A stretch of DNA of 64,000 bases from a virus. The translations under genes and the position numbers were made by a program. The notes beneath the pieces were generated by a model. The model did not search any database and was not told where the DNA came from. It saw nothing but the letters and a program-made list of their open reading frames with translations. Shown piece by piece: positions 14,213 to 61,909 of this stretch (position 1 is the first letter of the stretch; every line of letters starts with the position of its first letter). The stretch covers positions 1 through 64,000 of the IMG/VR virus record IMGVR_UViG_3300047489_000453; one strand, given 5' to 3'.

Positions 14213-14683
14213 CTATCTTTGCGACTTTTCAATTATTTTTTGGACGTAACCTAATACGCCGCTTGGACCTATAAAAGGTCCTTTTCCATCCCCTTGCCCT
14301 TTTCTTCTTCCTGCTGCCAGGGCTTCACTTTTGGCCAGTCCAGTGTATCTTAAATTCATCGCCCTTTCCATTGCCTGTAAATAAGCGGCCTGAAGCTTAA
14401 GAGCTTTTACGTCTCCGTCAGTTCCTGGAGACTCAACGTTAAATATTAGCCCGTAGTCCCTGTCTATTTTTTTTAATCTTGAGAATTCTTCTTTAGTATT
14501 AGCAGTGTTGTAAGGATTCTTTTTGTTTGTAAAAAGTAACGCCTGATTCCAGTCCCTAGACTCTCCTCCCTGAACCATATATTTGTGCATAGAGTCCGAC
14601 TGCTCTGACAGCTTTTTTATGTTGTCTTCAAAAGTTATGTCAGGGCCGCTTACTACAGACTTTCCGTAATATATTGAGCTCAT
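14213..14683 (-). CDS. Hypothetical protein
   Basis: 156 aa, translationally coupled (ATGA) to the sigma gene. Confidence 0.6.
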   Translation of the reverse strand: MSSIYYGKSVVSGPDITFEDNIKKLSEQSDSMHKYMVQGGESRDWNQALLFTNKKNPYNTANTKEEFSRLKKIDRDYGLIFNVESPGTDGDVKALKLQAAYLQAMERAMNLRYTGLAKSEALAAGRRKGQGDGKGPFIGPSGVLGYVQKIIEKSQR

Positions 14684-15744
14684 AGCACCCCTACCTTTTC
14701 TCTGCTATCAAGTTTCTTTTGAATTTCCGCTCTTATTTGACTTACTCTAGCCGGGGATATGCCCAGCTTCCTAGCTAAAGCCTCGTTGTCTAGTACTTCT
14801 TTTCCGTTCATACCAAACGTATGCTCCATGACCATTTGAGATCTTGGGTCAAGCCCGTCGTATACGAACCTTCTCCAAGCGTCTCCGCTGTCAGACGTCC
14901 CAGGAATGTTTACAGCTGGGTCATTAACATACTCGTCATCACCAGAAAACATAGCCTCAGTTGCGGCTCCTTCTGATATGCCTGGCTTAAATGACCTTAT
15001 GGTTTCTATTCTTTTTAGAGACATGCCAGTGTGGTCGGACAGCTCTTGGTCTGTAGGCTCTCTGCCAAGCTTATCCGTGAGCTCATTCATGGCCTGGTTT
15101 AAATGGTAACTGTCTATCTGCACTCTCTCTGGGACGTTTAAAATTTGGTTAGATTTAGCGTAAACCCTCCTAAGGCCTTGAAGGTGGGCCATAAGATGAG
15201 TCTTTAGCTTAGCTTGAGCAGGATCGTATGTATTTAAAGCCTCTAAAGCCATCCTATTGGCATGCAACCTTACACTTGGTGGGACATCTTGACCGACATA
15301 GCTTTTCAAAGCAGCTTCAATTATAGGCTGAATTTTTTGCAACATCATATCGTTGCTTTCTGGAGTTTGATTCTTCTTCCAGTTATTAAAAGACTCCTCA
15401 TATTCAGGCTCTATTTTGAGCTGGGATGATGGCTTCATATTAAATGGCTCATTTGCTTTTGAGCCATACGGGCTAGCTGGCTTGCTTGTACCGTCTTGAG
15501 GTTGGGCTGGAGCCATCAATGGAGGCTGTTGAGGCTGCGCCGGCGGCTGACCGAACATAGGGGCGGTGTTTTTAGGGGCTTCAGGCTCGCTAGAGGTGCC
15601 TGTAATAGCAGTATCGCTTAGGACAGAATTATTGTTATCGTCTGATGAGTCCAACAACGATTTAGGCTTGTTGGCCTGATTTTTTTGCCCCAAAGAAAAC
15701 ATAGTGGGGACGTCTCCAAAATTTTTCCTACCCATACTACTCAT
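14680..15744 (-). CDS. Sigma70-family RNA polymerase sigma factor (group 3-like) with a ~110 aa disordered N-terminal extension
   Basis: Region 2 ALEALNTYDPAQAKLKTHL, region 3 KLGREPTDQELSDHTGMS, region 4 HTH LDPRSQMVMEHTFG...EALARKLGISPARVSQI. Confidence 0.85.
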   Translation of the reverse strand: MSSMGRKNFGDVPTMFSLGQKNQANKPKSLLDSSDDNNNSVLSDTAITGTSSEPEAPKNTAPMFGQPPAQPQQPPLMAPAQPQDGTSKPASPYGSKANEPFNMKPSSQLKIEPEYEESFNNWKKNQTPESNDMMLQKIQPIIEAALKSYVGQDVPPSVRLHANRMALEALNTYDPAQAKLKTHLMAHLQGLRRVYAKSNQILNVPERVQIDSYHLNQAMNELTDKLGREPTDQELSDHTGMSLKRIETIRSFKPGISEGAATEAMFSGDDEYVNDPAVNIPGTSDSGDAWRRFVYDGLDPRSQMVMEHTFGMNGKEVLDNEALARKLGISPARVSQIRAEIQKKLDSREKVGVL

Positions 15745-32911: not shown

Positions 32912-33207
32912 GGTCTGCTCCTGACCTTTTTCAGGTGCTCTTCACAATCCTTTCTAACGTTATCGTTCCAGGATACATAGGAATGAAGGTGACCAAATAC
33001 AAAATGACAAGTTCCACACAAAGTCATGCAGTTGGTCTCTTCAAGCTCTTTAGTACTATCGACACTTACCGGTATTATATGGTGTACTGTAAGTTTTTTC
33101 TTTGTACCACAGGCGCAGCAAGTAGGGTTCTTTTCTAAAAATTCTTTTCTAAATTTAGGCCATCTGCTGGATCTGTCACTTAATATCCAGGCGAACATCT
33201 TAAACAT
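32896..33207 (-). CDS. HNH endonuclease
   Basis: CCACG...LTVHHIIP...NCMTLCGTCH. Confidence 0.9.
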   Translation of the reverse strand: MFKMFAWILSDRSSRWPKFRKEFLEKNPTCCACGTKKKLTVHHIIPVSVDSTKELEETNCMTLCGTCHFVFGHLHSYVSWNDNVRKDCEEHLKKVRSRPCHTV

Positions 33208-44799: not shown

Positions 44800-47178
44800 T
44801 TAGTCTGCTTCCAAGCTGATGCCTTCATCAGGATAGGCATCGATAGTTTTTTGTTTTAAGAACAACATAAGGTCGCCTAGCTGCTCAAATGAATTTCTTA
44901 GGCTGTCTTCTAGCTCTGGAAGGTCTTTCTTTCCGTATCTGTCTTCAAACTTGTCTTTATGCCAGTAGAAACTAAACAGTATACGGCCTATTTTATCAAG
45001 ACCTTTCATAAGATCGCCAAGATGATTATCTACCATCGAATCGTCTCTTACAGACTTTACTAAAGATCCGATCATAGAGGTATCAAATACATCTTTCTGG
45101 CCTGCTGTGGCCGCGTTGTATCCGATAGCCATAGTCTTAGGATCAGGAATTTTAGGGTCATACACCGCCGAGTTAGCCTGTAAAGACTGGCTGGACATGG
45201 CTGGAAGAGCTTGCTGCAGAGGATAAGTTGACTTAACGCTGCCAAGCAAGGTCTGCTCCATGCCAGTAGGTTCTACTGGGAATGCCGGGGAAGCGGTTCC
45301 GCCGATCATACTAGGATCGATATTGTCACCCGGCGCTGCTGACTTAATAAGGTCACCAGCATCCTCTTTGATCGGTTTATGTACTCTGTATTCGGCTACT
45401 TTATTAGCCTTAGCTTCGTCCAAAATAATCCTGGCTTGTTTTTCTGTTAACGATACGTCTCTGACTAGGTGAATTAGAGCGCTTTGAGGATCTAATACCC
45501 TGCCGTTAACGTTTACTTCTGACCCAGTATGTCTGACGTTCAAGGACGCTGTTTTTTGATAAATAGCGTGCTGAAGGTCTGTGAGACTTCCTGGAGTTAT
45601 AGAGCCGTTGCCGCAGCAATCATCGTCGTTAAGTTTAATTACCTTAAAATTACCTGGAATATAGAGTTCGCCCTTTATAGCTTTAATTCTTACTCCGGGC
45701 TTATCGGTAACGTAAAGCTTTTTGCCGCCGCCAATAACGCTAAGGTTATCCATATTAAAGTCGCCGTAGGACCCTTTTCGAATCACATGCGGCAAATAGC
45801 TAGGTTTTGACTGAGAAGCCCAGTCATAATACTTAACTCTAAAATTGTTTGTTCCGTCAGAGTTTCCTTCGACTTTTAGAACTTCAAAAGGCACTGAGGC
45901 ATCGCCGCTTTCGCTTACTGCCATGTATACGTTGCCTTTGGTCATAGATTTGATTTCAGACAGGCCTTCAAAGAACTTTTCATAGCTTTGGCCGCTAGTC
46001 TTACTCTCTGGAGCATCTTGCCCCTTATCCCTTGGAGGACGGGTAAAAAGGTTACCTGGGTGACTGTTTATCCAGTTCTTTTCGCCTTCGTAGCTTACAA
46101 CAGTGGCAAATTCCTGTCTGCCTGTTGGGCCGTGCGGCATTAGGAATATTACTGTTTTGAGCATAGAGAAAGGCGAAATAAGAAGATCGTATACGCCAGT
46201 AGTTGGAGGGTTTTCAAGGCTGGTAGGCGCCTGAACTCTATAAGCTATAGCGGTGTCGTCTTTTGTTCTAGCGTCTTGAAAAATTACTCCATCAGTCAAA
46301 AGCTTTTGCTTATCAGCTTCTGGAGAGTCCATTACGCCGTCTGAGGAGGCCGAAAAACTTCTTACTACGATCGTAAGGGCTTTCTTTTCTACATGGCCTA
46401 CAGATGCTGCGCCGTCTAATACGCCTGGGTTCTTAAGTGACTTAAACGTATCTACCGCTTTCTTAAGGAAGTCTTTTCCATAGAACTTATCAATAGCCTC
46501 TGCAATTTTAGGAAACTGCTGGCATGTTTCGATAAGGGCGGTTACCGCTTTTTTATAGCCTTCTTTGCCTCTATTAGCCTCTTTCTTAAAGAAAGAATCT
46601 AAAGTAGTAAGGTTTTTATACTTGGCGTCGTGTTCAGGGTTAGAGCAGGCGTGTTTTGCAAGCTGCCTAAGGCCTTCTCTCATTTCTTTTAAATCGTCAT
46701 TAACAGACGCAAACTTGGCCGGAGGACGGCTAAATGCCTGGAGATCTGGGGAAAGAAATCCAAGTCGAGCCATATTCTGATCGGTTTTCTTGCCTAGGCT
46801 GGCTGGTTTTCTTCGCAGAATATAATTGAGCCAGTTTTCTTTGAGGGGGACAAACTGATCTTGGTCTTTAAGATATAAAAGCTCATGGCCTTTAAGGTCA
46901 CCATTAGAAAAGAAGACAGGAGCATACAGCCACTGTGATCCTACCTTAAACCCAAATATGCCTACAGCCTTGGTGTTATCTTCGTTTCTTTCGAGAAGTT
47001 CAAATCCAACTTCGTAATCTAAAAGGCCTGGCGCTTTATCTTTTAGATAAGCGTGAGCCAGATTGCTAAACGATTGTTCAAATTGCGTATCATTACCTAA
47101 ATCACTTCCGCCCGCTTTTTTTACGAATCCATTAATTGGAGGAAGCTCTACTAAAAACTTATCAGTGTTCTGGCTCAT
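44800..47178 (-). CDS. Large putative virion head protein with K-x-A motifs
   Basis: 792 aa; VKKAG, AKFAS, AKHA, KKEA, EKKA, QKTAS, IKSAA. Confidence 0.5.
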   Translation of the reverse strand: MSQNTDKFLVELPPINGFVKKAGGSDLGNDTQFEQSFSNLAHAYLKDKAPGLLDYEVGFELLERNEDNTKAVGIFGFKVGSQWLYAPVFFSNGDLKGHELLYLKDQDQFVPLKENWLNYILRRKPASLGKKTDQNMARLGFLSPDLQAFSRPPAKFASVNDDLKEMREGLRQLAKHACSNPEHDAKYKNLTTLDSFFKKEANRGKEGYKKAVTALIETCQQFPKIAEAIDKFYGKDFLKKAVDTFKSLKNPGVLDGAASVGHVEKKALTIVVRSFSASSDGVMDSPEADKQKLLTDGVIFQDARTKDDTAIAYRVQAPTSLENPPTTGVYDLLISPFSMLKTVIFLMPHGPTGRQEFATVVSYEGEKNWINSHPGNLFTRPPRDKGQDAPESKTSGQSYEKFFEGLSEIKSMTKGNVYMAVSESGDASVPFEVLKVEGNSDGTNNFRVKYYDWASQSKPSYLPHVIRKGSYGDFNMDNLSVIGGGKKLYVTDKPGVRIKAIKGELYIPGNFKVIKLNDDDCCGNGSITPGSLTDLQHAIYQKTASLNVRHTGSEVNVNGRVLDPQSALIHLVRDVSLTEKQARIILDEAKANKVAEYRVHKPIKEDAGDLIKSAAPGDNIDPSMIGGTASPAFPVEPTGMEQTLLGSVKSTYPLQQALPAMSSQSLQANSAVYDPKIPDPKTMAIGYNAATAGQKDVFDTSMIGSLVKSVRDDSMVDNHLGDLMKGLDKIGRILFSFYWHKDKFEDRYGKKDLPELEDSLRNSFEQLGDLMLFLKQKTIDAYPDEGISLEAD

Positions 47179-47217
47179 ATTCGCAACCTTCCGTGGTTTG
47201 GAAAATGTTATAGAGCT

Positions 47218-47246
47218 ATTATGCTCTTAATTTTTCAATTGCGCAA
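47218..47246 (-). promoter_or_regulatory. Candidate sigma70-type promoter TTGCGC-N17-CATAAT
   Basis: Exact 17-bp spacing in the intergenic region upstream of 47178; the -10 lies within a small inverted repeat AGAGC-ATAATA-GCTCT. Confidence 0.35.
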
Positions 47247-47260
47247 CGATTACGGCGACT

Positions 47261-47680
47261 TTAAGAGTCATAATCCGTAATATTTACATTTAGCAGGCTT
47301 CTAGCCGCTACTCCGCTCTTTATAAAATTTAGGAAGTTTTGAAGATTCCTAATTTCAGCCATCTTAGCATAATTAGTTTGTGAATTAATAGTGGAGACAT
47401 CTCCACGATTAATTTGTTGTACAGGAGAAGGAGGCTGAATGACTGGCTGGGGATTATTAGATTGGGTCGTCACTATAGGCTGACTCTGTACTCTAGGCTG
47501 TATATTAGGGCTAGTATCTACTGACTTTACAGCCACTTCAGAAGGCGGCTTACCCTTAGTGGCCTCGTTTACTTGCAAAGGTTTTAGTGTTTCTTTTTCT
47601 GTTTTAGACTGGGACCCTTCAAGTTTTAAAGACTTGTCGGCCTGCTTCCAGGTAGCCCACTTTTCTAAAAAGGTTTGCAT
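47261..47680 (-). CDS. Low-complexity hypothetical protein with K-x-A motifs
   Basis: TAATG-coupled to the RNAP beta'-C gene; EKWA, WKQA, AKMA. Confidence 0.55.
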   Translation of the reverse strand: MQTFLEKWATWKQADKSLKLEGSQSKTEKETLKPLQVNEATKGKPPSEVAVKSVDTSPNIQPRVQSQPIVTTQSNNPQPVIQPPSPVQQINRGDVSTINSQTNYAKMAEIRNLQNFLNFIKSGVAARSLLNVNITDYDS

Positions 47681-49590
47681 TATAGTACGCCCTTGCTCTG
47701 TTCAGGCACTTTGCCAAGCTCATTAACGTCAAATCCTTTTACCTTACCTTTACGACCAAAATCAACAGCTTTTGCCAATGATGGCACATATGATGTGCCA
47801 GCTTCGTCGCTTATGGCGCCTCTATGCACAGCTTGTAAGGTAGATTTTCTTAGATTGCTCCCCAGCATTCTAGTCATCCAGTCAGGGTCATGCTGAAGAT
47901 TTTCTAGACCTCTGACAAAATGGGGCTCAAACGGTGGAGGTTCTTTGTGGACTGTAATATCTTTTATGCCAAATTTTTCAAACTCTCTAACCATAGACGG
48001 CCTTATAGGCGTGCCTATCGTATAGTGAAGAACAGGTTTTTCCAAATAGCTTCCTACTCCTTGATTAGGCTTAACCGTTCTACTGTCTTGTCTAGGCTCC
48101 CATACGCTTTCAACTGAGTCATAAGGTATGACGTCGTCAGGGTTAAACTGATTATATTCGTCATTCATGATGACATGGTTGATAAGGCCTTTGGACATTA
48201 CCTCTATATTTCTGCGATGGCCGTACATGCCGGCCTCTTTCATTGCAGTCCTAAAAGAATTAACGAATTGGCGACGGCCCTCGCCTATTCCCCTAAACTT
48301 AGTAAATTGAGCAGGGTTGGGAATACCAGAGGATATGACATCTCCGGCTTCTACAGTATCGCCTACCTTTACTGAAGCGGAAGCCTCAGGGCTGACGTAA
48401 TGTTCTACGCCGTCTATAGTTACAAATACACCACCAGTAGGCGCAGGTTTAATATTTGATACTCTACCGTCCTTTTGTGCATGAGTAGCCCAGAATGGAG
48501 ACTGCTTAGGGATTTGCACTAATTGATTGAGGTGCCTAAAACCAGACACAGACGCGGACGCTCCTGCGATACCGCCAGTGTGTTTAGAGTTTAGCTGCCC
48601 TTGAGAAATGGGCTCTGATAAAGCCTGCATAGCAGCAATTCCAACAGCATCTCCTATAGGTGCAAGACCTGATCTTTCTCTAATTCCTAGGTCCCTTGCA
48701 TATAGCCCTCCACCGGCAGCTCCCGACGCTATTGGGCTCCTGATGACTATTCTGTCTATGTTCTTTGATTTTAAATCTTTAAGAACTCTAGGCGTGAGCA
48801 CAGTGTTTCTTCCGTAACCTCCGGCAGGCATTCCTAATAGTGCGCCTTCGTTTTCCTCGTCATCCGTGTCTACCGGCATCCCCCTGTTCTCTATTGATTT
48901 AGGGTCGTCAGCATCTTCGCCAGTAACTATCATCCTGTGGCCGATTTGATTTAATTGCTTGGAAAAGAAGCCTGCGTCCATAACTGAGAACTTGGTATCT
49001 GTGATACCTTTTCGTGTACCAAAGCTCCCTGCGAAGTATTCAGACGGAGTTAGTCCTTTTGAATAAGAGTTAAATACTGGTATTGGTATTTCTCTATCGT
49101 GATGATCGGTATATAAAATGTCGCCGCCTCTAAGGCTTTTGAGGTTTTTAGGCTTACCTCTGGACCCGGACTGAATTTGCCTAGCTAACTGATTTCCTTC
49201 AGCGCTAGCTTCATCAAATATACCTTTTTCTAGATCTTTTTGAGAATTAGCTAAGATAGCTACAATTTGTTTATTCTTATCGTCATCAGTGAGCTGTCTA
49301 TTTGAAATAATTGAGTCTATAGCTGCTTTAAGTTTTAGTTTTCTGTCGTGATAAAATTTTGATTCCCTAAGATCGCTAAGACCAAAAGAGAAGCCACCAG
49401 AGTTATATGACACGTCTCTACCGACGTCCATAAGCCCTTTGGCTATCTGTCTGTATTTGTCTGGGTGATTTTCTGCTACCGTCTGAAGAATACCTTGAAC
49501 TGCTTTGGTATCTAGAACTCTAGAGTAGTCCTTAAGCTCGTCAGGAAGCGCGTCATTAACCATGATTTGACCTATAGTGGTCTTTAACAT
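47680..49590 (-). CDS. Phage multisubunit RNA polymerase, beta' C-terminal half (bridge helix, trigger loop)
   Basis: TTIGQIMVN, QSGSRGK, bridge helix GLTPSEYF...GTRKGITDT...AGFFSKQL, trigger loop GDAVGIAAMQALSEPISQGQLNSKHTGG. Confidence 0.92.
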   Translation of the reverse strand: MLKTTIGQIMVNDALPDELKDYSRVLDTKAVQGILQTVAENHPDKYRQIAKGLMDVGRDVSYNSGGFSFGLSDLRESKFYHDRKLKLKAAIDSIISNRQLTDDDKNKQIVAILANSQKDLEKGIFDEASAEGNQLARQIQSGSRGKPKNLKSLRGGDILYTDHHDREIPIPVFNSYSKGLTPSEYFAGSFGTRKGITDTKFSVMDAGFFSKQLNQIGHRMIVTGEDADDPKSIENRGMPVDTDDEENEGALLGMPAGGYGRNTVLTPRVLKDLKSKNIDRIVIRSPIASGAAGGGLYARDLGIRERSGLAPIGDAVGIAAMQALSEPISQGQLNSKHTGGIAGASASVSGFRHLNQLVQIPKQSPFWATHAQKDGRVSNIKPAPTGGVFVTIDGVEHYVSPEASASVKVGDTVEAGDVISSGIPNPAQFTKFRGIGEGRRQFVNSFRTAMKEAGMYGHRRNIEVMSKGLINHVIMNDEYNQFNPDDVIPYDSVESVWEPRQDSRTVKPNQGVGSYLEKPVLHYTIGTPIRPSMVREFEKFGIKDITVHKEPPPFEPHFVRGLENLQHDPDWMTRMLGSNLRKSTLQAVHRGAISDEAGTSYVPSLAKAVDFGRKGKVKGFDVNELGKVPEQSKGVL

Positions 49591-49599
49591 GGTACTCTC

Positions 49600-49812
49600 C
49601 TATAAATTAATCTTCCTGATAACTGGTTTATCCAGCCCGTGATCTTCTAGAACTTTTAAAAAATCATCATCGCCTGCAGTGGCGCAGACGATGATGTTTT
49701 TATCATTCTCAATAAAAACAGCTATAGGATTATTCATATTGTCGTAAACCACCAGCCTGGTAGCGGGCGACAGCCTATGATTTAAAAGATTATTATGATA
49801 ATCCAATAACAT
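49600..49812 (-). CDS. Small hypothetical protein
   Basis: 70 aa, TAATG-coupled, directly upstream of the beta'-C gene. Confidence 0.55.
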   Translation of the reverse strand: MLLDYHNNLLNHRLSPATRLVVYDNMNNPIAVFIENDKNIIVCATAGDDDFLKVLEDHGLDKPVIRKINL

Positions 49813-50456
49813 TATTTTTTCTTTCTAAGCAAGTACATCATTCCAGCGGCTTTCTCAGCTACAGAGATTTTAGCCGACTTAATTGGAGAGGTGTCTTGCG
49901 AAGAAGCGCTCGTAGCATCTTCACCATCTTTAGCTGGCGACGATACGTCATCTAGAATGTCATGAGGAAGGTTAAGCCCTAACGATGAATACAGGTGTGT
50001 CAAAAGCTTCTGTATTCTATGCATGTACAGCTCAACTTGCCCATTATCGTTTTTCTTTGAGGCTTTACCGGTGCCTTTGGCCCCGGCTAAAGCTTTTTGA
50101 AGCTCTTCCTGTACCACAGTTCTAATTTGCTCAGTAGGATCAGCTGGAGGGGATGCTCCGGCCGCAGCTGGATCCATAGGAGGCGCTCCGCCCATCATAG
50201 CTGGGTCCATAGGAGGCGCTCCGCCCATCATGGAGGGGTCCATAGGAGGTGCGCCGCCTGGAGGCATGCCGCCCATCATGGAGGGGTCCATAGGGGCTCC
50301 ACCTGGAGGCATGCCCCCCATCATAGATGGATCCATAGGAGGCGCTCCGCCCGGAGGCATACCGCCCATAGCTGCTGGGTCGCCGCCTTGGGTAGGAACA
50401 AAAGCACTTTTAATGCTATTTTTTGCTGATTGAAGCAGGAATCTATTAACTGCCAT
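49812..50456 (-). CDS. Met/Gly/Pro-repeat protein with K-x-A motifs
   Basis: GGMPPGGAPPMDPSMM-type repeats; IKSA twice, EKAA. Confidence 0.65.
   Translation of the reverse strand: MAVNRFLLQSAKNSIKSAFVPTQGGDPAAMGGMPPGGAPPMDPSMMGGMPPGGAPMDPSMMGGMPPGGAPPMDPSMMGGAPPMDPAMMGGAPPMDPAAAGASPPADPTEQIRTVVQEELQKALAGAKGTGKASKKNDNGQVELYMHRIQKLLTHLYSSLGLNLPHDILDDVSSPAKDGEDATSASSQDTSPIKSAKISVAEKAAGMMYLLRKKK
50170..50370 (-). repeat. Coding tandem repeat (about 5 imperfect units of (GGMPP)GGAPPMDPxMM)
   Basis: Recurring CCATAGGAGGCGCTCCGCCCATCAT units on the + strand. Confidence 0.85.
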
Positions 50457-50500
50457 TGTATTTTATCTCCGTTTTAAGCCCCAGTATATGCATCGCGTGT

Positions 50501-51397
50501 TTATATTTTTCCAGAATCGTCAGTATGCATTTTGTCGAATAGTATTGGGCTATCTCCAATATTATCAGAAGTATGACTAAAGTCAGGTTGCACAAGTTGT
50601 TTATATGGATCGTGCAATCCAGTAGAACCTGGAAACTTACCAGTATAAGGATTAGGCCTTACAGGTATAAGAGGAGCAGAGTTTTTAGCTGCTTCTCTTT
50701 CTGCTAACATTTTGCCTAAAATAGAGCTTAAACTTCCAGCTCCTGCACCTATTACACCGCCGCCCAGCGCGCCTGTTGCAAATCTGTTTAACATCCCTTT
50801 TCTTTTGCTGCCTAAAGCTAAGTTTCCTACGCCGCCTACACCGGCTCCAATTAGAGAACCCATAATAGCTTTTTGAACTCTTGGGTCTAATTGTCCATAA
50901 GCCGACATAATATCAGATACCGCAGCACTTTTATTAAAGGCTCTGAGAACATGATTAGCGTTATTAAAGCCTGATTCTTTTATGCTCATTTCTTCAACTC
51001 CTAAAGTATCTGCGCTTCCGCATTTCCATTTTCTTAAAGACTTGTTAATCCTGCTGTCCGGGTCATTAGCCGTCTCAGATGAAGTAAGTTTTGACTTCAT
51101 GCCTTTCATTCTGGCGCAGAAGCTATCTTTGCGCGCCCCGCCTTCCGGCTGAGGCCTCTTTATATCATGCCCTTGCGCCTTTAAGCTAGCCCTGCCTTTT
51201 TCGTTTAATCCGCCTTCTGGATTCTTACCTTCGGCTTTTTGCCAGGCGGCTGTGCCTTTTTTCTCTGATATTGATGTTACTTTCTTCCAGTTTTTTGCAT
51301 CTGGATAGTCTTTATCGCCTGGCTTGGCTGGAGCCTCGCCTCTCTCTTTTTTAGCGTGAATATTAGCCCACAACCCCGGCTTAGACTTATCTGCCAT
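50501..51397 (-). CDS. Mosaic protein: small basic phage modules (DUF6321-like) plus a glycine zipper
   Basis: AAWQKAEGKNPEGGLNEKGRAS...SFCARMKGMK...DPDSRINKSLRKWKC, then NKSAA and GSLIGAGVGGVG / GALGGGVIGAGAG. Confidence 0.65.
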   Translation of the reverse strand: MADKSKPGLWANIHAKKERGEAPAKPGDKDYPDAKNWKKVTSISEKKGTAAWQKAEGKNPEGGLNEKGRASLKAQGHDIKRPQPEGGARKDSFCARMKGMKSKLTSSETANDPDSRINKSLRKWKCGSADTLGVEEMSIKESGFNNANHVLRAFNKSAAVSDIMSAYGQLDPRVQKAIMGSLIGAGVGGVGNLALGSKRKGMLNRFATGALGGGVIGAGAGSLSSILGKMLAEREAAKNSAPLIPVRPNPYTGKFPGSTGLHDPYKQLVQPDFSHTSDNIGDSPILFDKMHTDDSGKI

Positions 51398-51415
51398 TTT
51401 TAACTCCTTTTAAAA

Positions 51416-51510
51416 CCAGTTAAAAGCCTTCATCTACTCTGTCGCACTTCCGCTTCGAGTGATGATTAGTCCCAGGAAAGTGCTAAAACGGGCCCTAGGC
51501 TTTCAACTGG
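51416..51510 (-). ncRNA. Candidate structured RNA: 14-bp outer stem, 13/14-nt internal bubble, 8-bp inner stem
   Basis: CCAGTTGAAAGCCT pairs with AGGCTTTTAACTGG and GCACTTTC pairs with GGAAGTGC; both mismatches are G-U pairs only on the minus strand. Confidence 0.4.
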
Positions 51511-51521
51511 ATCTATAGATA

Positions 51522-53009
51522 CTAACGCTTAGAGCCTATCTCTTTAAGCAAATTCAAGAACTTTTCATTAAGTTCTTGCTTCTTTTGTGCTGCTGCCATC
51601 AAGTATTCGTCAGTGGCAGGATCGCCTTCAGGTTTAAACCCTATTAGTCCTAGCAGCGATTTTAGCCTACTTGGAGCCGTTCTCGCCAGATATCTTTCTA
51701 TTTTTACTTTTCTCTCTTCAGGTGGAAGGTGCTCATGGCTGTCAAACCTTAAAGCTCTTCCTTCGCTTTGCGACCCTCTGCTGGTATTCCAGTGCGGGTC
51801 CAGTAGCTGCACTAGCTTTGTGCCTTTAAACGATAGCCCCTCTGTTCCGGCTGGGCCTAGCAGAGCCACCTTTAACTTATCAGCATTAAAATCATCTACT
51901 AGTTTTTTCCTTTCCTTGTCGCTTAACGCCCCTGTAAAGGAGGCGGCAGGTATACCAGCTTTATTTAATGCAGCCAGGTAAGGAGACAAGCCGGCGTCAA
52001 CAAAATTAGAAAATACTAACGCCTTGCCTCTTGGGTCTGTCTTAAGAAGGGTATTAAGCCTATTAAACGCCTCGTTTAGTTTTGGAGACTCTTTGAACGC
52101 CTTCATAGGGTCGGCATTATCTTTCATAAATGGAAGAGTGGATAAGCCTACTTGTCTTGGTCCTGTTAAAAAGCTTACTAACTTTTTTGACTCCTCATCT
52201 GTGAGAGGGTAGTTAAGTTGTAGCTTCCATTTAAGAAGAGTCGGCAGCTTTCCAAACAATTGATTATATAAATCTGTCTGGTCTCTGCTCATCTCTACTA
52301 TTACGTCTTCTCTGTTAATGTCAGCTCTTGGTTTTAAAGGAGCAAAGTAATCTACCTTACCTTTTAATGATTTTTTTAGCTCTTCCACGTTTTTTAATTC
52401 TGGGTCGTGGGCTTTTACATTTAGAAGCAGCTTATACCATGGGGCCTTTTCTGGTTTGCTTACGTACCTTTCAGAGAAGGCCTCAGGCGTCATTTCGCTA
52501 TCGGTAAGTACGTTATAAGGTACGGCAAAGTCGGCTGGGCTATTAACTATGGGGGTTCCAGTAAGAAGAACAGCTTGTCTAGCCTTCCTTGCTGCCTCTA
52601 AGAGATTCTTAGTCTGGGCTGACTCCATATTTCTAAATCTATGAGCCTCGTCTACTAATAAAGATTCGGGATGCTCTATAGGCTTGCCCATAGCCAGTCC
52701 CGTATGGCTCATTATTGATGACGGGGTAGCAGTTGCAGGATCTATAAATTTTTCCTGCTCTTTTTTAAGATTAGTTCTAAGAGCTGCCGGCACTATGGCC
52801 GTGTAAGGAATTTTAGTAGCATCAGCGGCCGCCAGACCGCTTAAAGTCTTGCCCGACCCAAGACTATGATAGAGCAGCATTCTAGCTCTATCTTTTTTAT
52901 CTATCTGTTCTTGAACCTTGTCTACAACGGCCTGCTGATGCGGCTGTAGATTTACGCCTTGAGCTAAGTCGGCCTGCTTACAAATTGTGGAGACGTCGAC
53001 ACTACTCAC
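51522..53009 (-). CDS. SNF2-family (SF2) helicase/ATPase
   Basis: LQPHQ, HSLGSGKT, VDEAH, LLTGTP, ALVFSNF, GTEGLSF, QSEGRALR; coupled (GTGA) to the RNAP fusion gene. Confidence 0.92.
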   Translation of the reverse strand: MSSVDVSTICKQADLAQGVNLQPHQQAVVDKVQEQIDKKDRARMLLYHSLGSGKTLSGLAAADATKIPYTAIVPAALRTNLKKEQEKFIDPATATPSSIMSHTGLAMGKPIEHPESLLVDEAHRFRNMESAQTKNLLEAARKARQAVLLTGTPIVNSPADFAVPYNVLTDSEMTPEAFSERYVSKPEKAPWYKLLLNVKAHDPELKNVEELKKSLKGKVDYFAPLKPRADINREDVIVEMSRDQTDLYNQLFGKLPTLLKWKLQLNYPLTDEESKKLVSFLTGPRQVGLSTLPFMKDNADPMKAFKESPKLNEAFNRLNTLLKTDPRGKALVFSNFVDAGLSPYLAALNKAGIPAASFTGALSDKERKKLVDDFNADKLKVALLGPAGTEGLSFKGTKLVQLLDPHWNTSRGSQSEGRALRFDSHEHLPPEERKVKIERYLARTAPSRLKSLLGLIGFKPEGDPATDEYLMAAAQKKQELNEKFLNLLKEIGSKR

Positions 53010-56000
53010 TTTCCTGTCTCCATTATCACGACTCTATCGTTAATATCTATGTCGCCAGATCTGTAAGCTCTTATAGCGTCAGCTTTGGTCTTAAAGTATT
53101 TCTCTGGTCTTTTTGAAGGAGCAGCGGATGCAGCGTATAGCCCGCCCTGATACTCGTTAGCTGGAAGCTGATGAACTTTAAATGACTTAGCTGCCATAAG
53201 GTTACGACTTGGCAACATCTTTTCCATCGCGTCTTTTACAGCCTCGTCCGTGCTTGGAACGTGATAGTTCATGGCATCGCCATCAAAGTCGGCATTAAAA
53301 CCTTTTACTATTATTGGAGACACCTGTAGCGTGCTACCTTTTACCAGCTTAGGCTTAAACGCCATTACACCATATCTGTGAAGAATAGGCGCCCTTGTCA
53401 CTATTACGGGCCTTGCGTCCATCTCGGCAACCATGGCGTCTCTGGCCATGTTGTCTTTCTTATCAATCATGTCGGCAGCTTTAAACCTATCAACGCCTCT
53501 ACGAATAAGACGCCTCATTATAAACGGTTTATATACTGACCAGGCTCTATCCTCTGGAAGGCCTACTTCGTCCATGTCCAGATCAGGGTTAGGAGTAATT
53601 GCCGCCCTTCCTACCATATCAACTTGAGAGCCTAAAAGTTTTCTTTGAACAACGCCAAACTTAGGATTATCTCCGAATACTTGCTTTAATATTCCTTTTA
53701 CGTTTTTCTTTTCAAGCTTTGGATTAACAGAATCTCCAAGGCCAGTTATAGCCTTAAATGAGTCATAAAGAGCTAGTCTGTGTTGAGACAAGTCAGAAAA
53801 TGACTTTGAAGCTTCTCTGAACTCATTATTAACGTCGATAAGTTCCTTGTATAGGTAGTTAGCATCTCCGACCATCGGTAGACCGTTGTTAGACATTATA
53901 CTTACAGGTCTAAACACTGGAGGCAAAACGGGTACTTTTGTAAGCATCCATTCTGATGGGTGTATCTTAAGGTTCTTAGCGCTCTTAAGATAACTAAGCT
54001 TTCTTACAGCGTCGTCCCTGTACGACTTTTTACCGGACGCAATTATAGCTCTGGCTTTGGCTATTTCTTGATCCACGTTCATGGATTTGAGCGCATTAGC
54101 TATGGCTGAGGGCCCAGAGGCACCTCCAAGCTGCTCTTTTCCAGCTAGTACGTCTCTAAATTTATTCTCAGTTAGACCTAGAACTCTTCTTATAGGGTCT
54201 TCCATAACAGGGTTAGGCATTGCCTCGTGAAGCTTTATATGGCTCCACATGTTGCCGCCATGCCCGCCTGTAAGAGATACGTCAAATAGACCGCCACCAG
54301 CAGGCTCAAGACCTTTGCCCCAGTCTACTGTATCTGATTTTTTGATTTCCCTATTTCCTGACAGGGAATCTATATCCTTGTCAGTAAGGGCCATAAGTTG
54401 TGTCTTAGTTCCACTTCTTACAGGGTTTATTCCAGACGCCTGGAGCTGAGCCATGAACTTTCTGTAAGTCAGTGGGACTCTAGGTATTGGAAGAGGTCCG
54501 CCTGTCATAAAGGACGCCCAGTAATCTTCGTTCTTCTGGCCCCTTATAGCGCCGGCATCCCTAAGTACTTCGTGAGCGCCGTGTGACAATAAAGCGTTAA
54601 CGTCCATTAATGATACGCGCTTGCTTCCTTCTTCACCGCCCTTGGCCGGAGTCTCTTCAGAGGTATATCCGCCGCTGCCTATACCTCTACCCTGGCCTTT
54701 AGACTCCGAGGTATGGTGTAGCTTTAAAAAGAACCTGTTTCCTGTGAATATGCCTTTTATTTTTCTTCCAGTCTCCGGGTCTTCAATATCTTCCTTGTCG
54801 CTCATGTTATTTTTTTTAAGTTCATTAAGAGCAAACTCGGTAAGATCCTGGATGTTTTCAAAATCTTTTACCGCGTACCTTTTTCCAGTCTTTGCAGCTA
54901 TCTTTCCTAGAGCAGCCTCAATCATCTGACTTGGGTTTGTTCTAGATATAACGCCAAGGGGATTAAGAAGAATGTCAAAAGGATTGCCCTCTGAATCTCT
55001 AGGCATTTTTGAATCTGGAATAACGGCGGATATAACTCCCTTATCGCCATATCTACCTGACAGCTTGTCGCCTTCTTTTGAACTGCTAAGGCTTTTTACA
55101 GTTACTGATACTCCCTTATTTGTCTTGGTAACATCTGTAACTACGCCATCGTTTTCGTGGTCCCAGGTAATAGATGCATTACTAAACCCAGTCTTTGACC
55201 TGCCTATCTGTTGATTGTGTGACCTTGAAAGAATTTTGGCCTGTAAAAATAAAGGGTCTCCCTTTCTTACTACAGTGCCTGGCTTTATGGCGCCGTCATC
55301 GTCCAGAGAGTCAACTACCTGTCTAGAATAGTCTGAAGGAAATAATGTTAGAAATCCTCTTTTGCCTTCTTTAGTTTCCTTGCCAAATTCAGCTTGGTGC
55401 TGATACATGTGCTCTGACGTTAATTTTTTAGCGGCGCTTTCAGATATAACTACAGCGTCTTCAAAGTTATAGCCTTTATAAGGAATGTAGGCGGTTCTAA
55501 GATTAATGCCCAGAGCAGCTGTACCTTTTTCATCGGTATAGTTTGACCTTGCTAACAGCCCGCCTTTTTTTACCATATCGCCAACTTTTACAGTTGGAGT
55601 GTTGTGTAAAAAGGTTTTTCTATTAAAAGGTAAATTGTTGTATATCTCTTGCTTGTAAAGCTTTCCGTCTGTTCCTCTAATTCTAACCTCGTCGTTGTCG
55701 GCATAAATTACTTGGCCATCAACATCAGAGTAGGCTGCGCCCATATGCTTGCCGTATTCCTCTTCATATGATTTATCCTCTTCGCCAAGCTTACCGGACT
55801 GCACAAGTGGGGCCTCTGGATTTTTCAGAGGCAGAGCCTGGGTAAGCATTCTTGAACCCATCACTACTCTTTGGCCAAATGTAGCGCTCTTAAGCGGAAC
55901 CATGTTGGCAAGGTGATTAAAGGCGCTGTCCATTCTAGGCAGTTCGAAGTCAACATCTTGTCTATCAACATATTTAATCTTACCGCCGGCCATAGCGGCT

Positions 56001-57457
56001 ACTTTAGTCTTTGATTTATCTATGAGCTGGTTTGGAAACGCTATTACTGACTGGGCCATCTCTTGCGGAGTTTTCCAAACTTCATCACCTGTTCTTACAT
56101 CTCTAAACTTAGAATAAACTTTTCCGTCTACGCCTTTGCGGGCGTTTGTAGCTATTCTGCTATCAATACCCACCTTAAGTGACTCTGGCGTAAGCAGAGG
56201 ATCTATGTAGCCAAAGTGAGATGGCTGAACGTTTCTAGCTTCTTCTGGAACAGCTTGCAAGGAAGGAATGCCGCCTTCGCCGAGACGACTTACTCTGGTG
56301 ATTTGATTTAATAAATCAGCTGGATTTACTTCTTCAAGAGGCTGGCCCAAGCCGCTTTTCATAATAGCGGAATTAACCTGTGAAGATAAAAATCCAGGAG
56401 CAAATGGCGATAAGTTTTGTTTAAAGCTGGCCTTCCACAGCAGAGGGCGCATAACTTTATAAGCAGCCCTAATTCTTTCAGTAAATAAATCTTCAGGGCC
56501 ATACAGATTCTGATAGGCCATGGCGTCTCTGTCGTCTGGATCTGCCTCTTTTCTATGCACAGCTAATATTCTTTTTGTGGCTGCCAACACTGAATCAACT
56601 GACAAGTTAGAGAAGCCTTTACCTAAAGTTGCAGCCGTAACTTCTGGATCAAGCTCCATTTTTGTCATGGCAGCTGCTACGGCTTTAGCTTTACTTTCTT
56701 CGGTCATGGCCTCGCCAGGCTGTAGTCTTCCTATCTTTTTGAAGATCTTGTCTAGGTATTGAGGATCATTTTTAACTGCGTTTGAAGCGTATATCTCATT
56801 TCCCCACGCTTCCCTAATCTGCTTATCGCTAGCGCCCATAGCTTTAAGAACTGGCATAAGAGGCACATTAGACTGGCCAAATGAAATATTAAACACGCCC
56901 TTTTCTGGGCTTAAAGAGTATCTATGAGATAGCCCCTTGCCAGGCATTACGTTTACGTGGCTTTCAACGTCGCCGCTATTTGTTATTCTTGTAAATACAC
57001 CCGGCCTTAGCCTCATCTGGTTAGCCAAGGTATACTCAGTGCCGTTTACTATATAAGTTCCTCTATCTGTTAGGTAGGGAATCTTAGCTATAGTTGTCCT
57101 CTTGCTTTCAAGCACCTTGCCCGTACTATTATCGATTAGATTTATTGTACCTTTGAGGCCGCGACTGAGAGTTTCGCCTTTTAATATGGCTTCTTTTTGA
57201 GTCTTTATAGGCTTTACCTCTTCAGGGTCGCCCCAGCCTACATCTGTAATTGATAGAGTGTGTCTCTGGTTACTGAGAGGCTGTAACGACGAGGCTGCTG
57301 TCTGAACTCCGTTAAATATTGCAGCTCTAGTAGCCTTTATGTCATCAAACCCTCTCATGGAAGGGGCTTGCATAGAAGGAACTAAGCCGACCATTTTATT
57401 GGCCGGCTTAGGAATGAGGCCGCTGCTATCTGGCTGATCGGGAAGTACGCCGGCCAT
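53006..57457 (-). CDS. Phage multisubunit RNA polymerase: beta subunit fused to the beta' N-terminal (catalytic) half
   Basis: Beta motifs GTYIVNGTE, SRLGEGG, GYNFEDA, GDKLSGRYGDKGVIS, LKLHH; junction after LQASGINP near 54420; beta' motifs PVLPPVFRP, LLGSQVD, RAPILHR, and NADFDGD at 53276-53296. Confidence 0.95.
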   Translation of the reverse strand: MAGVLPDQPDSSGLIPKPANKMVGLVPSMQAPSMRGFDDIKATRAAIFNGVQTAASSLQPLSNQRHTLSITDVGWGDPEEVKPIKTQKEAILKGETLSRGLKGTINLIDNSTGKVLESKRTTIAKIPYLTDRGTYIVNGTEYTLANQMRLRPGVFTRITNSGDVESHVNVMPGKGLSHRYSLSPEKGVFNISFGQSNVPLMPVLKAMGASDKQIREAWGNEIYASNAVKNDPQYLDKIFKKIGRLQPGEAMTEESKAKAVAAAMTKMELDPEVTAATLGKGFSNLSVDSVLAATKRILAVHRKEADPDDRDAMAYQNLYGPEDLFTERIRAAYKVMRPLLWKASFKQNLSPFAPGFLSSQVNSAIMKSGLGQPLEEVNPADLLNQITRVSRLGEGGIPSLQAVPEEARNVQPSHFGYIDPLLTPESLKVGIDSRIATNARKGVDGKVYSKFRDVRTGDEVWKTPQEMAQSVIAFPNQLIDKSKTKVAAMAGGKIKYVDRQDVDFELPRMDSAFNHLANMVPLKSATFGQRVVMGSRMLTQALPLKNPEAPLVQSGKLGEEDKSYEEEYGKHMGAAYSDVDGQVIYADNDEVRIRGTDGKLYKQEIYNNLPFNRKTFLHNTPTVKVGDMVKKGGLLARSNYTDEKGTAALGINLRTAYIPYKGYNFEDAVVISESAAKKLTSEHMYQHQAEFGKETKEGKRGFLTLFPSDYSRQVVDSLDDDGAIKPGTVVRKGDPLFLQAKILSRSHNQQIGRSKTGFSNASITWDHENDGVVTDVTKTNKGVSVTVKSLSSSKEGDKLSGRYGDKGVISAVIPDSKMPRDSEGNPFDILLNPLGVISRTNPSQMIEAALGKIAAKTGKRYAVKDFENIQDLTEFALNELKKNNMSDKEDIEDPETGRKIKGIFTGNRFFLKLHHTSESKGQGRGIGSGGYTSEETPAKGGEEGSKRVSLMDVNALLSHGAHEVLRDAGAIRGQKNEDYWASFMTGGPLPIPRVPLTYRKFMAQLQASGINPVRSGTKTQLMALTDKDIDSLSGNREIKKSDTVDWGKGLEPAGGGLFDVSLTGGHGGNMWSHIKLHEAMPNPVMEDPIRRVLGLTENKFRDVLAGKEQLGGASGPSAIANALKSMNVDQEIAKARAIIASGKKSYRDDAVRKLSYLKSAKNLKIHPSEWMLTKVPVLPPVFRPVSIMSNNGLPMVGDANYLYKELIDVNNEFREASKSFSDLSQHRLALYDSFKAITGLGDSVNPKLEKKNVKGILKQVFGDNPKFGVVQRKLLGSQVDMVGRAAITPNPDLDMDEVGLPEDRAWSVYKPFIMRRLIRRGVDRFKAADMIDKKDNMARDAMVAEMDARPVIVTRAPILHRYGVMAFKPKLVKGSTLQVSPIIVKGFNADFDGDAMNYHVPSTDEAVKDAMEKMLPSRNLMAAKSFKVHQLPANEYQGGLYAASAAPSKRPEKYFKTKADAIRAYRSGDIDINDRVVIMETGK

Positions 57458-60294: not shown

Positions 60295-61821
60295 CTACTG
60301 GCCGAACAAGCCCGGAACAACTGATTTAACAGCCCCGGCTATAACTCCAGCTGTTTGTAACGTTTTTTGAGCTTCTGGAGTGAGCCCGGCTAGAGCCCCC
60401 AAGACTTTTCCGCCAATCGTAGCCTGTACGTATCCTGCGCCCATTCCAAGACCTATTCTGGCTATGTCCATAGGACTTACGTATCTAGACGGACCGCCTA
60501 TATTGCTGGCAGCGTTTACAACTCCAAGTGTAGCCGCCTGCATTGGAGGTGCTATAAATGGGTCGTTTAAAACTAGCCTATTAAACGCGTCTACAGGAAT
60601 GGGCTCAAGGCTTATTGAAGGCGCGCCAAACCCGCCGCCGAAGCCTCCACCAAACATGTCGGCCGCTTTTTGCATCTCTTCTGATATCTCAGGCTGAATA
60701 GCTTTTAGGCAGGCACTTGCTTTGTTTATAAATGAATTGCCTTGGGCATTAACTGGATTGCCGTATATAACGTTAGGTCGTATAAACGCTCTCCAGCTTC
60801 CTTTGTCCCTTTCGGGATTATATTTACTATCCCAGGTAGAGACGCCTAAAGCGCCTAGCCCGGCTCCAGGTAGAGTTCCAAGAGCGCCAGCCAGCATAGC
60901 CAGCCTCTTTCTTGATTTGTTCTTTTCAAACACGCCTGGAGCTAAGGATTCGGCTATAGTGCCTGCTCCATATCCTACTCCTGCGGATAAAAGTCCGCCT
61001 GCTAGCATAGCAGCTAGTGGGGTAGGTCCTCCTATGGCGTTTGAGAACCTAGACGGCTTAAGCATAAGCATTTTGGCAGCCGGGCCAAATACGTCTGACA
61101 TTAACAAGTCTCTGGCGCTCTTGACCATGATCCATGGTGGGCCTTCAGTAAGACTGTCTTCAGGCTGACAAATATCGTGAGCTATGGCTTCTTTCTCAAG
61201 ACAAGTGGAGACGTGTCCACTTTTCTCTACGACTACCCTGCTATCGAACGGATTAATCCAGGCGTATGTCCCTGGCAGCAAAGCATTTGCGACTTTATAG
61301 TAGGTGTCTCTTACAGCATTGGCATACACCAAAACCTGGTCTGGTACATCATCCCAAGTTAAATTATTTGCAGATTTCATTGTTGGTACTTGCCACTTTA
61401 CGGAAGGCGGAATAATATTCCTAGGTACATGAATTTTAAAAGACGTAGGTACGTGAGTTATGCCAACATATTTGTTATTCAATACTGAATCAATTACAAA
61501 CTCATCAGGGTACTGTTCCATCATACCCCTTAGTATCTTGTTCTTTTCCTCGTAGTTTTTCTCATCAGAAAACTTTTTTGCCTTAAGCAAAATATTAAGT
61601 GCTGATTTGGGGTCTCTTTTTTTAGATTCCTCAGAGGCAGGCTCAGGTAACGGCTGTTGCTCAGTCTGTTGCTCAGTGCCTGGTTGGCTGACTGGTTTTG
61701 GTGGATCTAGTGGTTCTGGCGGAGGTTCTTGTTGTGTTACGGGAAGAGGAGGTTCCTCAGGCTTAGGTGGCGCCGTGGGTACTGGCGGGGTAGACGGTGG
61801 TAACGGTAGTTCTGCCTGCAT
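60295..61821 (-). CDS. Multi-module glycine-zipper protein (start reassigned to ATG 61821)
   Basis: GGAGGA RBS before MQAELP; Pro-rich N-terminus; several Gly-zipper helices; MKSA, YKVA, EKEA, VKSA, NKAS, QKAA. Confidence 0.6.
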   Translation of the reverse strand: MQAELPLPPSTPPVPTAPPKPEEPPLPVTQQEPPPEPLDPPKPVSQPGTEQQTEQQPLPEPASEESKKRDPKSALNILLKAKKFSDEKNYEEKNKILRGMMEQYPDEFVIDSVLNNKYVGITHVPTSFKIHVPRNIIPPSVKWQVPTMKSANNLTWDDVPDQVLVYANAVRDTYYKVANALLPGTYAWINPFDSRVVVEKSGHVSTCLEKEAIAHDICQPEDSLTEGPPWIMVKSARDLLMSDVFGPAAKMLMLKPSRFSNAIGGPTPLAAMLAGGLLSAGVGYGAGTIAESLAPGVFEKNKSRKRLAMLAGALGTLPGAGLGALGVSTWDSKYNPERDKGSWRAFIRPNVIYGNPVNAQGNSFINKASACLKAIQPEISEEMQKAADMFGGGFGGGFGAPSISLEPIPVDAFNRLVLNDPFIAPPMQAATLGVVNAASNIGGPSRYVSPMDIARIGLGMGAGYVQATIGGKVLGALAGLTPEAQKTLQTAGVIAGAVKSVVPGLFGQ

Positions 61822-61909
61822 AGTATCCTCCAACACAAATAGTACCAATTCTTGAGGGTCCAATCTATAGTTTAGGTTTAACAATTTTACCTTTAGGAGG
61901 GTAGTTTCA

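Follow-up and report, generated by a model that had tools for sequence, protein, structure and literature searches.

Can a bacterial-type RNA polymerase (RNAP) do without both zinc sites of its beta' subunit, and what would lead a phage to give them up? This question is raised by a 64,000-nucleotide stretch of viral DNA (hereafter the window), the first 64 kb of the 136,787-bp IMG/VR record IMGVR_UViG_3300047489_000453 (CheckV completeness 67%), in which a multisubunit RNAP is encoded as two proteins, one joining beta to the N-terminal half of beta' (the fusion) and one carrying the C-terminal half of beta' (beta'C). Both beta' zinc sites have been described as common to all multisubunit RNAPs (PMC7618050) and are regarded as important for their structure. 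The initial annotation of the window proposed that the first of them, an N-terminal ribbon, had been deleted and that the second had been substituted. We find that both are gone and that the loss takes in every cysteine of the enzyme, and our best reading is that loss of the zinc sites was the final step of a cysteine purge of an injected holoenzyme. The parts of the two genes on which the argument turns are as follows:

53006..57457, minus strand: beta fused to the N-terminal half of beta' (1483 amino acids (aa), 0 cysteines)

54233..54295, minus strand: site of the deleted ribbon, GGLFDVSLTGGHGGNMWSHIK, which stands for the E. coli segment with C70, C72, C85 and C88

53276..53296, minus strand: the catalytic NADFDGD of beta', intact (fusion residues 1388-1394)

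47680..49590, minus strand: C-terminal half of beta', beta'C (636 aa, 0 cysteines)

48904..48930, minus strand: IVTGEDADD, with Ala227 at the position of E. coli C814, the first ligand of the second site

48685..48750, minus strand: IVIRSPIASGAAGGGLYARDLG, with Ser289 for C888, C895 deleted and Leu296 for C898

On translation, GGLFDVSLTGGHGGNMWSHIK, IVIRSPIASGAAGGGLYARDLG and IVTGEDADD were recovered exactly as the initial annotation had written and placed them. The fusion carries Rpb2_6 (E 2.3e-54), Rpb1_2 (E 1.7e-24; 87.4 bits, cut-off 25.3) and Rpb2_3, all above the Pfam cut-offs, and in phmmer searches of the PDB its residues ∼50-1040 match beta chains and its residues ∼1083-1479 match beta' chains. 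It therefore holds the catalytic double-psi beta-barrel of a bacterial-type beta', as judged from NADFDGD together with Rpb1-type Pfam domains; in most relatives the consensus of the catalytic motif reads GADFDGD. The beta'C protein in turn matches Rpb1_5 (E 1.1e-17, 64.9 bits, cut-off 28.5) and residues 945-1384 of Thermus beta' (phmmer, E 1.9e-30). An AlphaFold2 (AF2) model of the N-terminal half of beta' has a mean predicted local distance difference test (pLDDT) score of 78.6, and residues 20-484 of this model span E. coli beta' residues 20-555 (VIA-align, Z about 22, with a root-mean-square deviation of 12-19 Å over ∼380-440 aligned residues).

To place the zinc ligands, we used E. coli rpoC from NC_000913.3 as the reference, the cysteines of which include those at 70, 72, 85, 88, 814, 888, 895 and 898. 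In the MAFFT alignment the fusion shows a gap of ∼32 residues between GGLFD and WSHIKL that removes all four cysteines of the ribbon, so the proposed N-terminal deletion is borne out. It is also conserved, being common to all 11 of the clade members aligned and to the Salmonella phage Arash, and the short ribbon-less loop was matched by pattern in six more divergent IMG/VR relatives (8 loci screened). The loop that replaces the ribbon, LTGGHxGN(R)W, is itself strongly conserved, with D60 in 62 of 62 rows, H67 in 61 of 62 and H78 in 55 of 62. Arash lacks both of these histidines despite sharing the deletion, reading P and M at the positions of H67 and H78.

The second site was substituted. By alignment with E. 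coli rpoC, C814 has become Ala227 and C888 Ser289, C895 falls in a deletion of 3-4 residues, and C898 has become Leu296. All four ligands meet identical fates when phmmer independently aligns the protein to Thermus beta', in agreement with the proposed substitution. Across 69 aligned relatives the C814 column is filled by A (28), D (21), S (9), H (6), G (3), L (1) and T (1), the C888 column by G (43), S (15), T (6), M (3), V (1) and L (1), and the C898 column by L (36), V (29) and I (4), and the consensus here is now a glycine-rich turn, SP.VGGPPDGG(L/V)Y. An AF2 model of beta'C built from the 69-row alignment is confident overall (mean pLDDT 80.6) and more so over residues ∼220-300 (88-95), and its top Foldseek matches are bacterial beta' chains, Thermus beta' included (E ∼3e-23). 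The former second site is thus predicted to lie in a folded domain without metal, the local fold of which would be held by the glycine-rich turn and hydrophobic packing.

Loss of the cysteines need not mean loss of the metal. The ligands might have been swapped for others, histidine and aspartate in the loop and carboxylates near the second site, with a structural metal still bound, and the conservation of D60, H67 and H78 would fit such a swap, as would an invariant D226 and the frequent acidic residues at positions 228 (D/E in 55 of 69) and 293 (D/E in 50 of 69). At the second site, however, the equivalent of C888 is glycine in 43 of 69 rows, that of C898 is without exception Leu, Val or Ile, and C895 has no counterpart, so that at most one of the original positions could bind metal. 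The acidic residues that precede C814 are not a replacement, because E. coli has them too (TEDDC), and in the loop the P and M of Arash speak against histidine ligands as a general substitute for the ribbon. We regard a swap of ligands as quite improbable.

A second alternative is that these genes are decaying or non-functional copies, in which two features described as common to all multisubunit RNAPs (PMC7618050) would be missing for that reason. Against this, both reading frames (1483 and 636 aa) are unbroken, NADFDGD is present, dozens of columns are invariant across 62-69 relatives, and AF2 gives confident folds that resemble bacterial beta'. Moreover, this is the only RNAP found in the relatives' genomes. 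A search with PF00562 found a single beta locus in 31 of 32 of them (in two adjacent pieces in G004; G032 gave no match), and one PF00623 locus is present in the window's own record. A second RNAP set of the kind present in phiKZ was not found in these searches. Decay is contradicted by the conservation data, and we give it next to no credence.

The loss proved wider than first noted, covering every cysteine and not just the eight zinc ligands. Together the two RNAP proteins have 0 cysteines in 2119 residues, while the 53 open reading frames (ORFs) of at least 100 aa in the window average 0.81%; about 17 cysteines would be expected, and with a Poisson P(0) of about 3.5e-8 their absence is not due to chance. 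The same holds across the best 120 database homologs each of the fusion and of beta'C. Among fusion homologs of 1400-1520 aa (n = 100), 94 have no cysteine and six have one (6 in 147,488 residues), the other 20 being truncated or bearing intein-sized insertions; among beta'C homologs of 560-700 aa (n = 108), 106 have none and two have one (2 in 68,811 residues), the other 12 being longer. This amounts to 8 cysteines in about 216,000 residues at 51-100% identity. Our confidence in these sequence facts, for the cysteines as for the zinc sites, is very high.

We considered whether the longer homologs, which do contain cysteines, are counter-examples, and rejected them as such: in 23 of 25 insertion-bearing alleles all cysteines lie inside an insertion of 169-409 residues, and the remaining two have one each outside it (P0046 at 1454, P0212 at 571). 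Intein-sized insertions occur once or twice per RNAP gene set in many relatives (P0019-P0107, P0161-P0226), at several distinct sites, and the window's RNAP genes have none. Most start with Cys and finish in Asn, and Pfam finds LAGLIDADG_3, Hom_end_hint and Intein_splicing in them. The residue that follows the insertion (n = 30) is Ser or Thr in 25 cases and N or F in three, with two mis-mapped (the pairwise alignment misplaced where the insertions of P0043 and P0212 end), and it is never Cys. Because the residue after cleanly mapped insertions is Ser or Thr and never Cys, the mature RNAP stays cysteine-free, and the pattern is that expected of inteins in a cysteine-free host protein.

Length varies at the end of beta'C as well. 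In many representatives of 50%-identity clusters (relatives P0243-P0380) the protein runs on into a C-terminal extension of 400-1100 aa, and six extensions that we counted have 0-1 cysteines in 604-871 aa. The beta'C of the window instead ends, and in the region that follows (44800-47680, minus strand) a 139-aa ORF overlaps its stop and is followed by a 792-aa ORF. BLAST detected no similarity between the extensions and either of these two ORFs; two of ten extensions tested resemble part of the ORF at 60295-61884.

Which other genes share the purge? Three more genes of the window are listed here, the first two of which enter into the comparison:

51522..53009, minus strand: SNF2/Rad25-like helicase, between both RNAP genes (495 aa, 1 cysteine)

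14680..15744, minus strand: sigma70-like factor, inside the tail/baseplate gene block (354 aa, 0 cysteines)

61910-64000, plus strand: ribonucleotide reductase large subunit (2.15% cysteine)

We compared orthologs in 80 loci from IMG/VR relatives, within 10 kb on either side of beta'C, after filtering by length and dropping intein-bearing and fused forms. Cysteine makes up 0.078% of beta'C and 0.027% of the fusion, and 0.87% of the flanking 792-aa ORF family, 2.03% of a 479-aa ORF family and 0.58% and 0.35% of two others. A generally low-cysteine gene block was therefore rejected, as the flanking orthologs hold 0.35-2.0%. Compared with their neighbours, it is the transcription proteins that have been purged. 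Orthologs of the sigma70-like ORF, which a whole-record search found in all 32 relatives' genomes, have no cysteine in 7273 aligned residues (30 of 30 orthologs, at 34-60% identity), and the helicase orthologs have none in 7650 aligned residues (17 of 17). A need to save sulfur was considered as the cause and rejected, since the methionine content of the fusion (3.30%) and of sigma (4.24%) shows no depletion relative to the window (2.04%).

These figures bear on a third alternative, that the RNAP is an ordinary intracellular enzyme that lost its cysteines and zinc sites through relaxed constraint, oxidative or thiol-reactive stress, metal scarcity or drift. Drift fails to explain why so few cysteines remain in about 216,000 residues of homologs as divergent as these, nor does it account for sigma and helicase being purged as well when cysteine stands at 0.35-2.0% in adjacent genes; sulfur limitation would predict a reduction in methionine that is not seen. 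We return to this alternative below.

Beyond its cysteine content, the sigma70-like ORF is likely the specificity subunit of this RNAP. It matches Sigma70_r3 (38.2 bits, cut-off 25.3), while its match to region 4 is below cut-off (17.8 bits, cut-off 24.1) and the Pfam search reported no match to sigma70 region 2. In predicted complexes its residues 127-167 sit on the clamp helices of the beta' N-terminal half, as region 2 would, with interface (ipSAE) scores of 0.77, 0.76 and 0.75 against 0.00 for the best control, at least 51% of contacts common between runs and partner pLDDT of at least 72; of 80 solved complexes, 58 attain the calibration mark for this score, as do 2 of 110 mismatched pairs. 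A pass of this kind may reflect resemblance to solved sigma-core complexes rather than provide evidence of binding. The helicase, for its part, carries Helicase_C, ResIII and SNF2-rel_dom. In three relatives' genomes (G004, G001 and G030, at loci L130, L127 and L143) the helicase match sits in longer frames of 2984, 1163 and 1315 aa, which suggests fusions with other domains.

The order in which the two sites were lost can be read from more distant relatives. In both Arash and Vibrio phage D69, beta'C has exactly four cysteines, at 232, 284, 291 and 294, with the spacing of the second site, and the fusion proteins have just 1 and 2. Six IMG/VR relatives with beta'C 40-43% identical likewise have exactly four, at about 226, 280, 287 and 290; in four of these the pattern matched the fusion gene and showed the short loop without a ribbon. 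The same pattern gave no match in D69; in Arash the deletion is confirmed by alignment. In a beta'C tree of 81 rows, the 73 rows without the second site form one side of a branch with Shimodaira–Hasegawa-like (SH-like) support of 94, and one loss of that site therefore suffices. The most economical order is thus deletion of the ribbon and removal of the non-ligand cysteines, followed by a single loss of the second site in the ancestor of the crown clade. The first step would have deleted the N-terminal ribbon and taken all cysteines other than ligands; the second, occurring once, would have turned the remaining ligands into Ala/Asp/Ser, Gly/Ser, a deletion and Leu/Val.

What would drive such a purge? 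We think it probable that the RNAP is packed in the virion and ejected into the host. In the mechanism we propose, the transcription set, consisting of the two-chain RNAP, the sigma70-like factor and the SNF2-type helicase, would be made late, alongside the structural proteins, and packed into the head. On ejection it would pass down the tail into a Gram-negative host and transcribe the early genes, and transcription later in infection would rely on this gene product as well. Ejected proteins would be under strong selection for zero cysteine. The reasons we offer are that they may be unfolded or loosely folded as they traverse the envelope, where they pass the disulfide-forming enzymes of the periplasm, and that a Cys4-zinc centre could not travel along. 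The sequences themselves show the state of the sites, its conservation, its restriction to the transcription proteins and the order of the losses; that this phage packages and ejects the set, that selection acted for this reason and that no metal is bound are inferences. Several lines of evidence bear on ejection.

The first is the likeness to proteins whose ejection is known from experiment. Cysteine suppression is conserved in the ejection proteins of Schitoviridae, where it has been tied to passage through the periplasm and its disulfide-forming enzymes, and where polymerases of the N4 gp50 type (homologs of DEV gp71) are given as 0.00075% cysteine versus 0.865% in proteomes (PMC11445570). 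In our counts, N4 gp50 has 0 cysteines in 3500 aa, gp51 0 in 644 and gp52 0 in 150, together 0 in 4294, while N4 replication enzymes have 1.1-1.4%; T7 gp15 has 0 in 747, gp16 0 in 1318 and gp14 1 in 196, and T7 RNAP has 12 in 883. The orthologs of the window's RNAP, sigma and helicase show conserved suppression of the same kind. The second line is the virion of Arash. Liquid chromatography–mass spectrometry of gradient-purified virions detected the fusion Gp206 more than any other protein (3516 spectra), above the capsid protein, together with beta'C Gp216 (1210 spectra), the helicase Gp217 (1148) and the sigma Gp10 (467) (PMC10585845). Among Arash proteins Gp10 matches the window sigma best, and it has 0 cysteines; Gp217, which adjoins beta'C, has 0 in 472 aa, its orthology to the window helicase being by position and annotation only. 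The proteins detected with the polymerase in these virions thus correspond to the cysteine-free set of the window's clade. Arash also has a second sigma-like protein, gp196 (locus L003, 2564-3601), with 3 cysteines; the term Gp196 is absent from the text of PMC10585845, including the virion table in which the cysteine-free Gp10 is listed.

Third, the genes lie among those for structural proteins. The phage is a tailed, myovirus-type phage of roughly 200 kb, nearly all genes of the window are on the minus strand in one long block that includes the major head protein, baseplate and protease genes, and the RNAP genes share the strand of these genes and are contiguous with them. As to the state in which such an enzyme travels, a review of jumbo-phage RNAPs had already suggested that virion RNAPs are probably unfolded while they move through the tail (PMC7598289). 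The earlier suggestion that a zinc-independent core would suit ejection is therefore supported, indirectly, by the cysteine purge, the likeness to N4 and T7 and the Arash virion data. The initial annotation had unfolding and refolding during ejection in mind; the published rationale is passage past the disulfide-forming enzymes of the periplasm and not unfolding as such.

Several points weigh against ejection as the explanation. The sole virion proteomics are those of Arash, the fusion protein of which is 31.7% identical to the window's, and the authors of that study count 116 virion-associated proteins and allow for carry-over of abundant enzymes in the preparation (PMC10585845). The virion RNAP of phiKZ has 17 cysteines in 2856 aa (the non-virion enzyme has 33 in 2850) and keeps its second zinc site; a packaged multisubunit RNAP therefore need not lose its zinc. 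Conversely, the N-terminal zinc domain is missing from AR9's non-virion enzyme (PMC7618050), and because of these two cases zinc-site status does not map cleanly onto packaging. A Gram-negative host with a periplasm is an assumption. The conserved D60, H67 and H78 and the acidic cluster near the second site may allow a metal site without cysteine, to go by the residues. The helicase was found by whole-record search in 17 of 32 relatives' genomes, and the window's own copy has one cysteine. Finally, the tree behind the single loss was built with FastTree and carries SH-like support.

The first few of these points are also what favours an ordinary intracellular enzyme: with AR9 and phiKZ, packaging is neither necessary nor sufficient for loss of a zinc site, and carry-over might account for the Arash spectra. 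That alternative must contend, however, with a cysteine pattern matching that of proteins of experimentally known ejection (N4, T7, DEV) and with a fusion subunit that ranks as the top protein of the Arash virion preparation, ahead of the capsid protein, in addition to the shortcomings of drift and sulfur limitation noted above. On balance we consider it unlikely, and continue to favour ejection.

A few other features of the window deserve mention. The ribonucleotide reductase gene is the sole long plus-strand gene and marks the end of the minus-strand block of structural and transcription genes. Within the structural block lie a cysteine-rich HNH endonuclease (32896-33207, minus strand, 8 cysteines in 103 aa) and a glycosyltransferase-methyltransferase fusion (34182-35444, minus strand). 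The protein at 50501-51397 (minus strand) has a DUF6321 domain (Pfam, E 1.7e-16), a domain that recurs at the C termini of several large PHROG families without known function. A 214-aa protein between the RNAP genes (49812-50456, minus strand) carries tandem MGGMPPGGAPPMDPSM repeats and has 0 cysteines, and its 12 length-matched orthologs have 1 in 2699 residues. A 1520-aa ORF that adjoins tail/baseplate genes (18631-23193, minus strand) also has 0 cysteines and matches neither Pfam nor PHROG families; in 29 of 30 loci the longest frames at the orthologous place total about 29,500 residues with 4 cysteines (at the thirtieth a different ORF, with 18 cysteines, was picked). This ORF is a candidate tape measure or other injected protein.

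Taken in full, our proposal is of a metal-free, cysteine-free ‘ejectable holoenzyme’ made up of the fusion, beta'C, the sigma70-like factor and the SNF2 helicase and delivered via a contractile tail, a proposal that in this complete form we hold to be evenly poised between right and wrong. If it is true, no natural multisubunit RNAP of bacterial type will have been shown before this one to fold, assemble and work without structural zinc, alpha or omega, and living relatives would preserve an evolutionary series with two sites, one site and none. Conserved zero cysteine would then be a genome-wide predictor of a phage's injected proteome, such that injected proteins could be predicted from sequence alone, and it would also flag the 1520-aa ORF and the repeat protein. 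The rule of cysteine suppression, established so far for single-subunit polymerases of the N4 type and for the ejection proteins of podoviruses, appears to extend to a multisubunit holoenzyme in myovirus-type phages of about 200 kb. A large natural clade that dispenses with both zinc sites, with relatives that hold a one-site intermediate, offers a ready test of the role of these sites, the loss of which was possibly compensated by the beta-beta' fusion and the glycine-rich turn. A refoldable polymerase free of cysteine and metal would be of practical interest as well.

How does this enzyme compare with known systems? None of the literature searched describes a multisubunit RNAP free of zinc or of cysteine, and none of it ties cysteine loss to phage multisubunit RNAPs. 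The window's record, with its head, baseplate and protease genes alongside those of beta and beta', fits the description of mReC phages (Weinheimer & Aylward 2020, PMC7481178), Caudovirales contigs with beta and beta' homologs that cellular profiles recognise and that branch in an RNAP clade of their own; the words zinc, cysteine and virion are absent from that paper, as are zinc and cysteine from the 2020 review of jumbo-phage RNAPs (PMC7598289).

With bacterial beta' (E. coli RpoC, Thermus) the phage enzyme shares domain order, NADFDGD, clamp helices and the bridge-helix/trigger-loop region. In contrast to bacterial beta', it is split after the catalytic domain with its N-terminal half fused to beta, it lacks the Cys4 ribbon, its second Cys4 site is replaced, and it has no cysteine at all. 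It also differs from the bacterial core, and resembles other phage multisubunit RNAPs, in having no alpha or omega homolog: neither PF01000 (alpha) nor PF01192 (omega) was found in any of five complete relatives' genomes, while controls matched in 14 of 14.

The closest parallels are Arash (Gp206/Gp216) and D69, which like the window have a beta-beta'N fusion and a separate beta'C; their fusions are 31.6-31.7% identical to the window's over 95-99% of its length. D69 has the same gene architecture as the window, and Arash has the adjacent helicase, an ortholog of the window sigma and the same ribbon deletion. In Arash a portal gene lies directly upstream; the portal-position proteins of Arash and D69 had no BLAST match among the window ORFs at E ≤ 1e-3. 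Both phages are nearly cysteine-free outside the second site, and unlike the window's clade both keep the cysteines of that site.

AR9 and phiKZ similarly encode split beta/beta' enzymes without alpha or omega, together with an SNF2-type helicase gene (PMC7824862). They have both virion and non-virion enzymes, whereas the window's clade has one locus per genome, and they use specificity subunits that are not of the sigma70 type, whereas the window phage encodes a sigma70-like protein. The AR9 chain 7S00_D and phiKZ gp74 and gp80 all keep the cysteines of the second site, and none of the three is cysteine-free. The states of the two sites in these phage enzymes are as follows:

phiKZ non-virion RNAP: ribbon kept, second site kept

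phiKZ virion RNAP: no ribbon-type cysteine cluster among its cysteine positions, second site kept

AR9 non-virion RNAP: ribbon lost, second site kept

Arash and D69 RNAP: ribbon lost (Arash; D69 unconfirmed), second site kept

RNAP of the window's clade: ribbon lost, second site lost

Among the phage enzymes inspected, then, that of the window's clade is the only one to have lost both. The remaining parallel is with N4 gp50 and DEV gp71, which belong to short-tailed phages and are single-subunit, T7-like polymerases of unrelated fold, with no multisubunit-type Cys4 sites to lose, but which are likewise polymerases carried in the virion and show, like the window's set, a complete suppression of cysteine that extends to their co-ejected partners.

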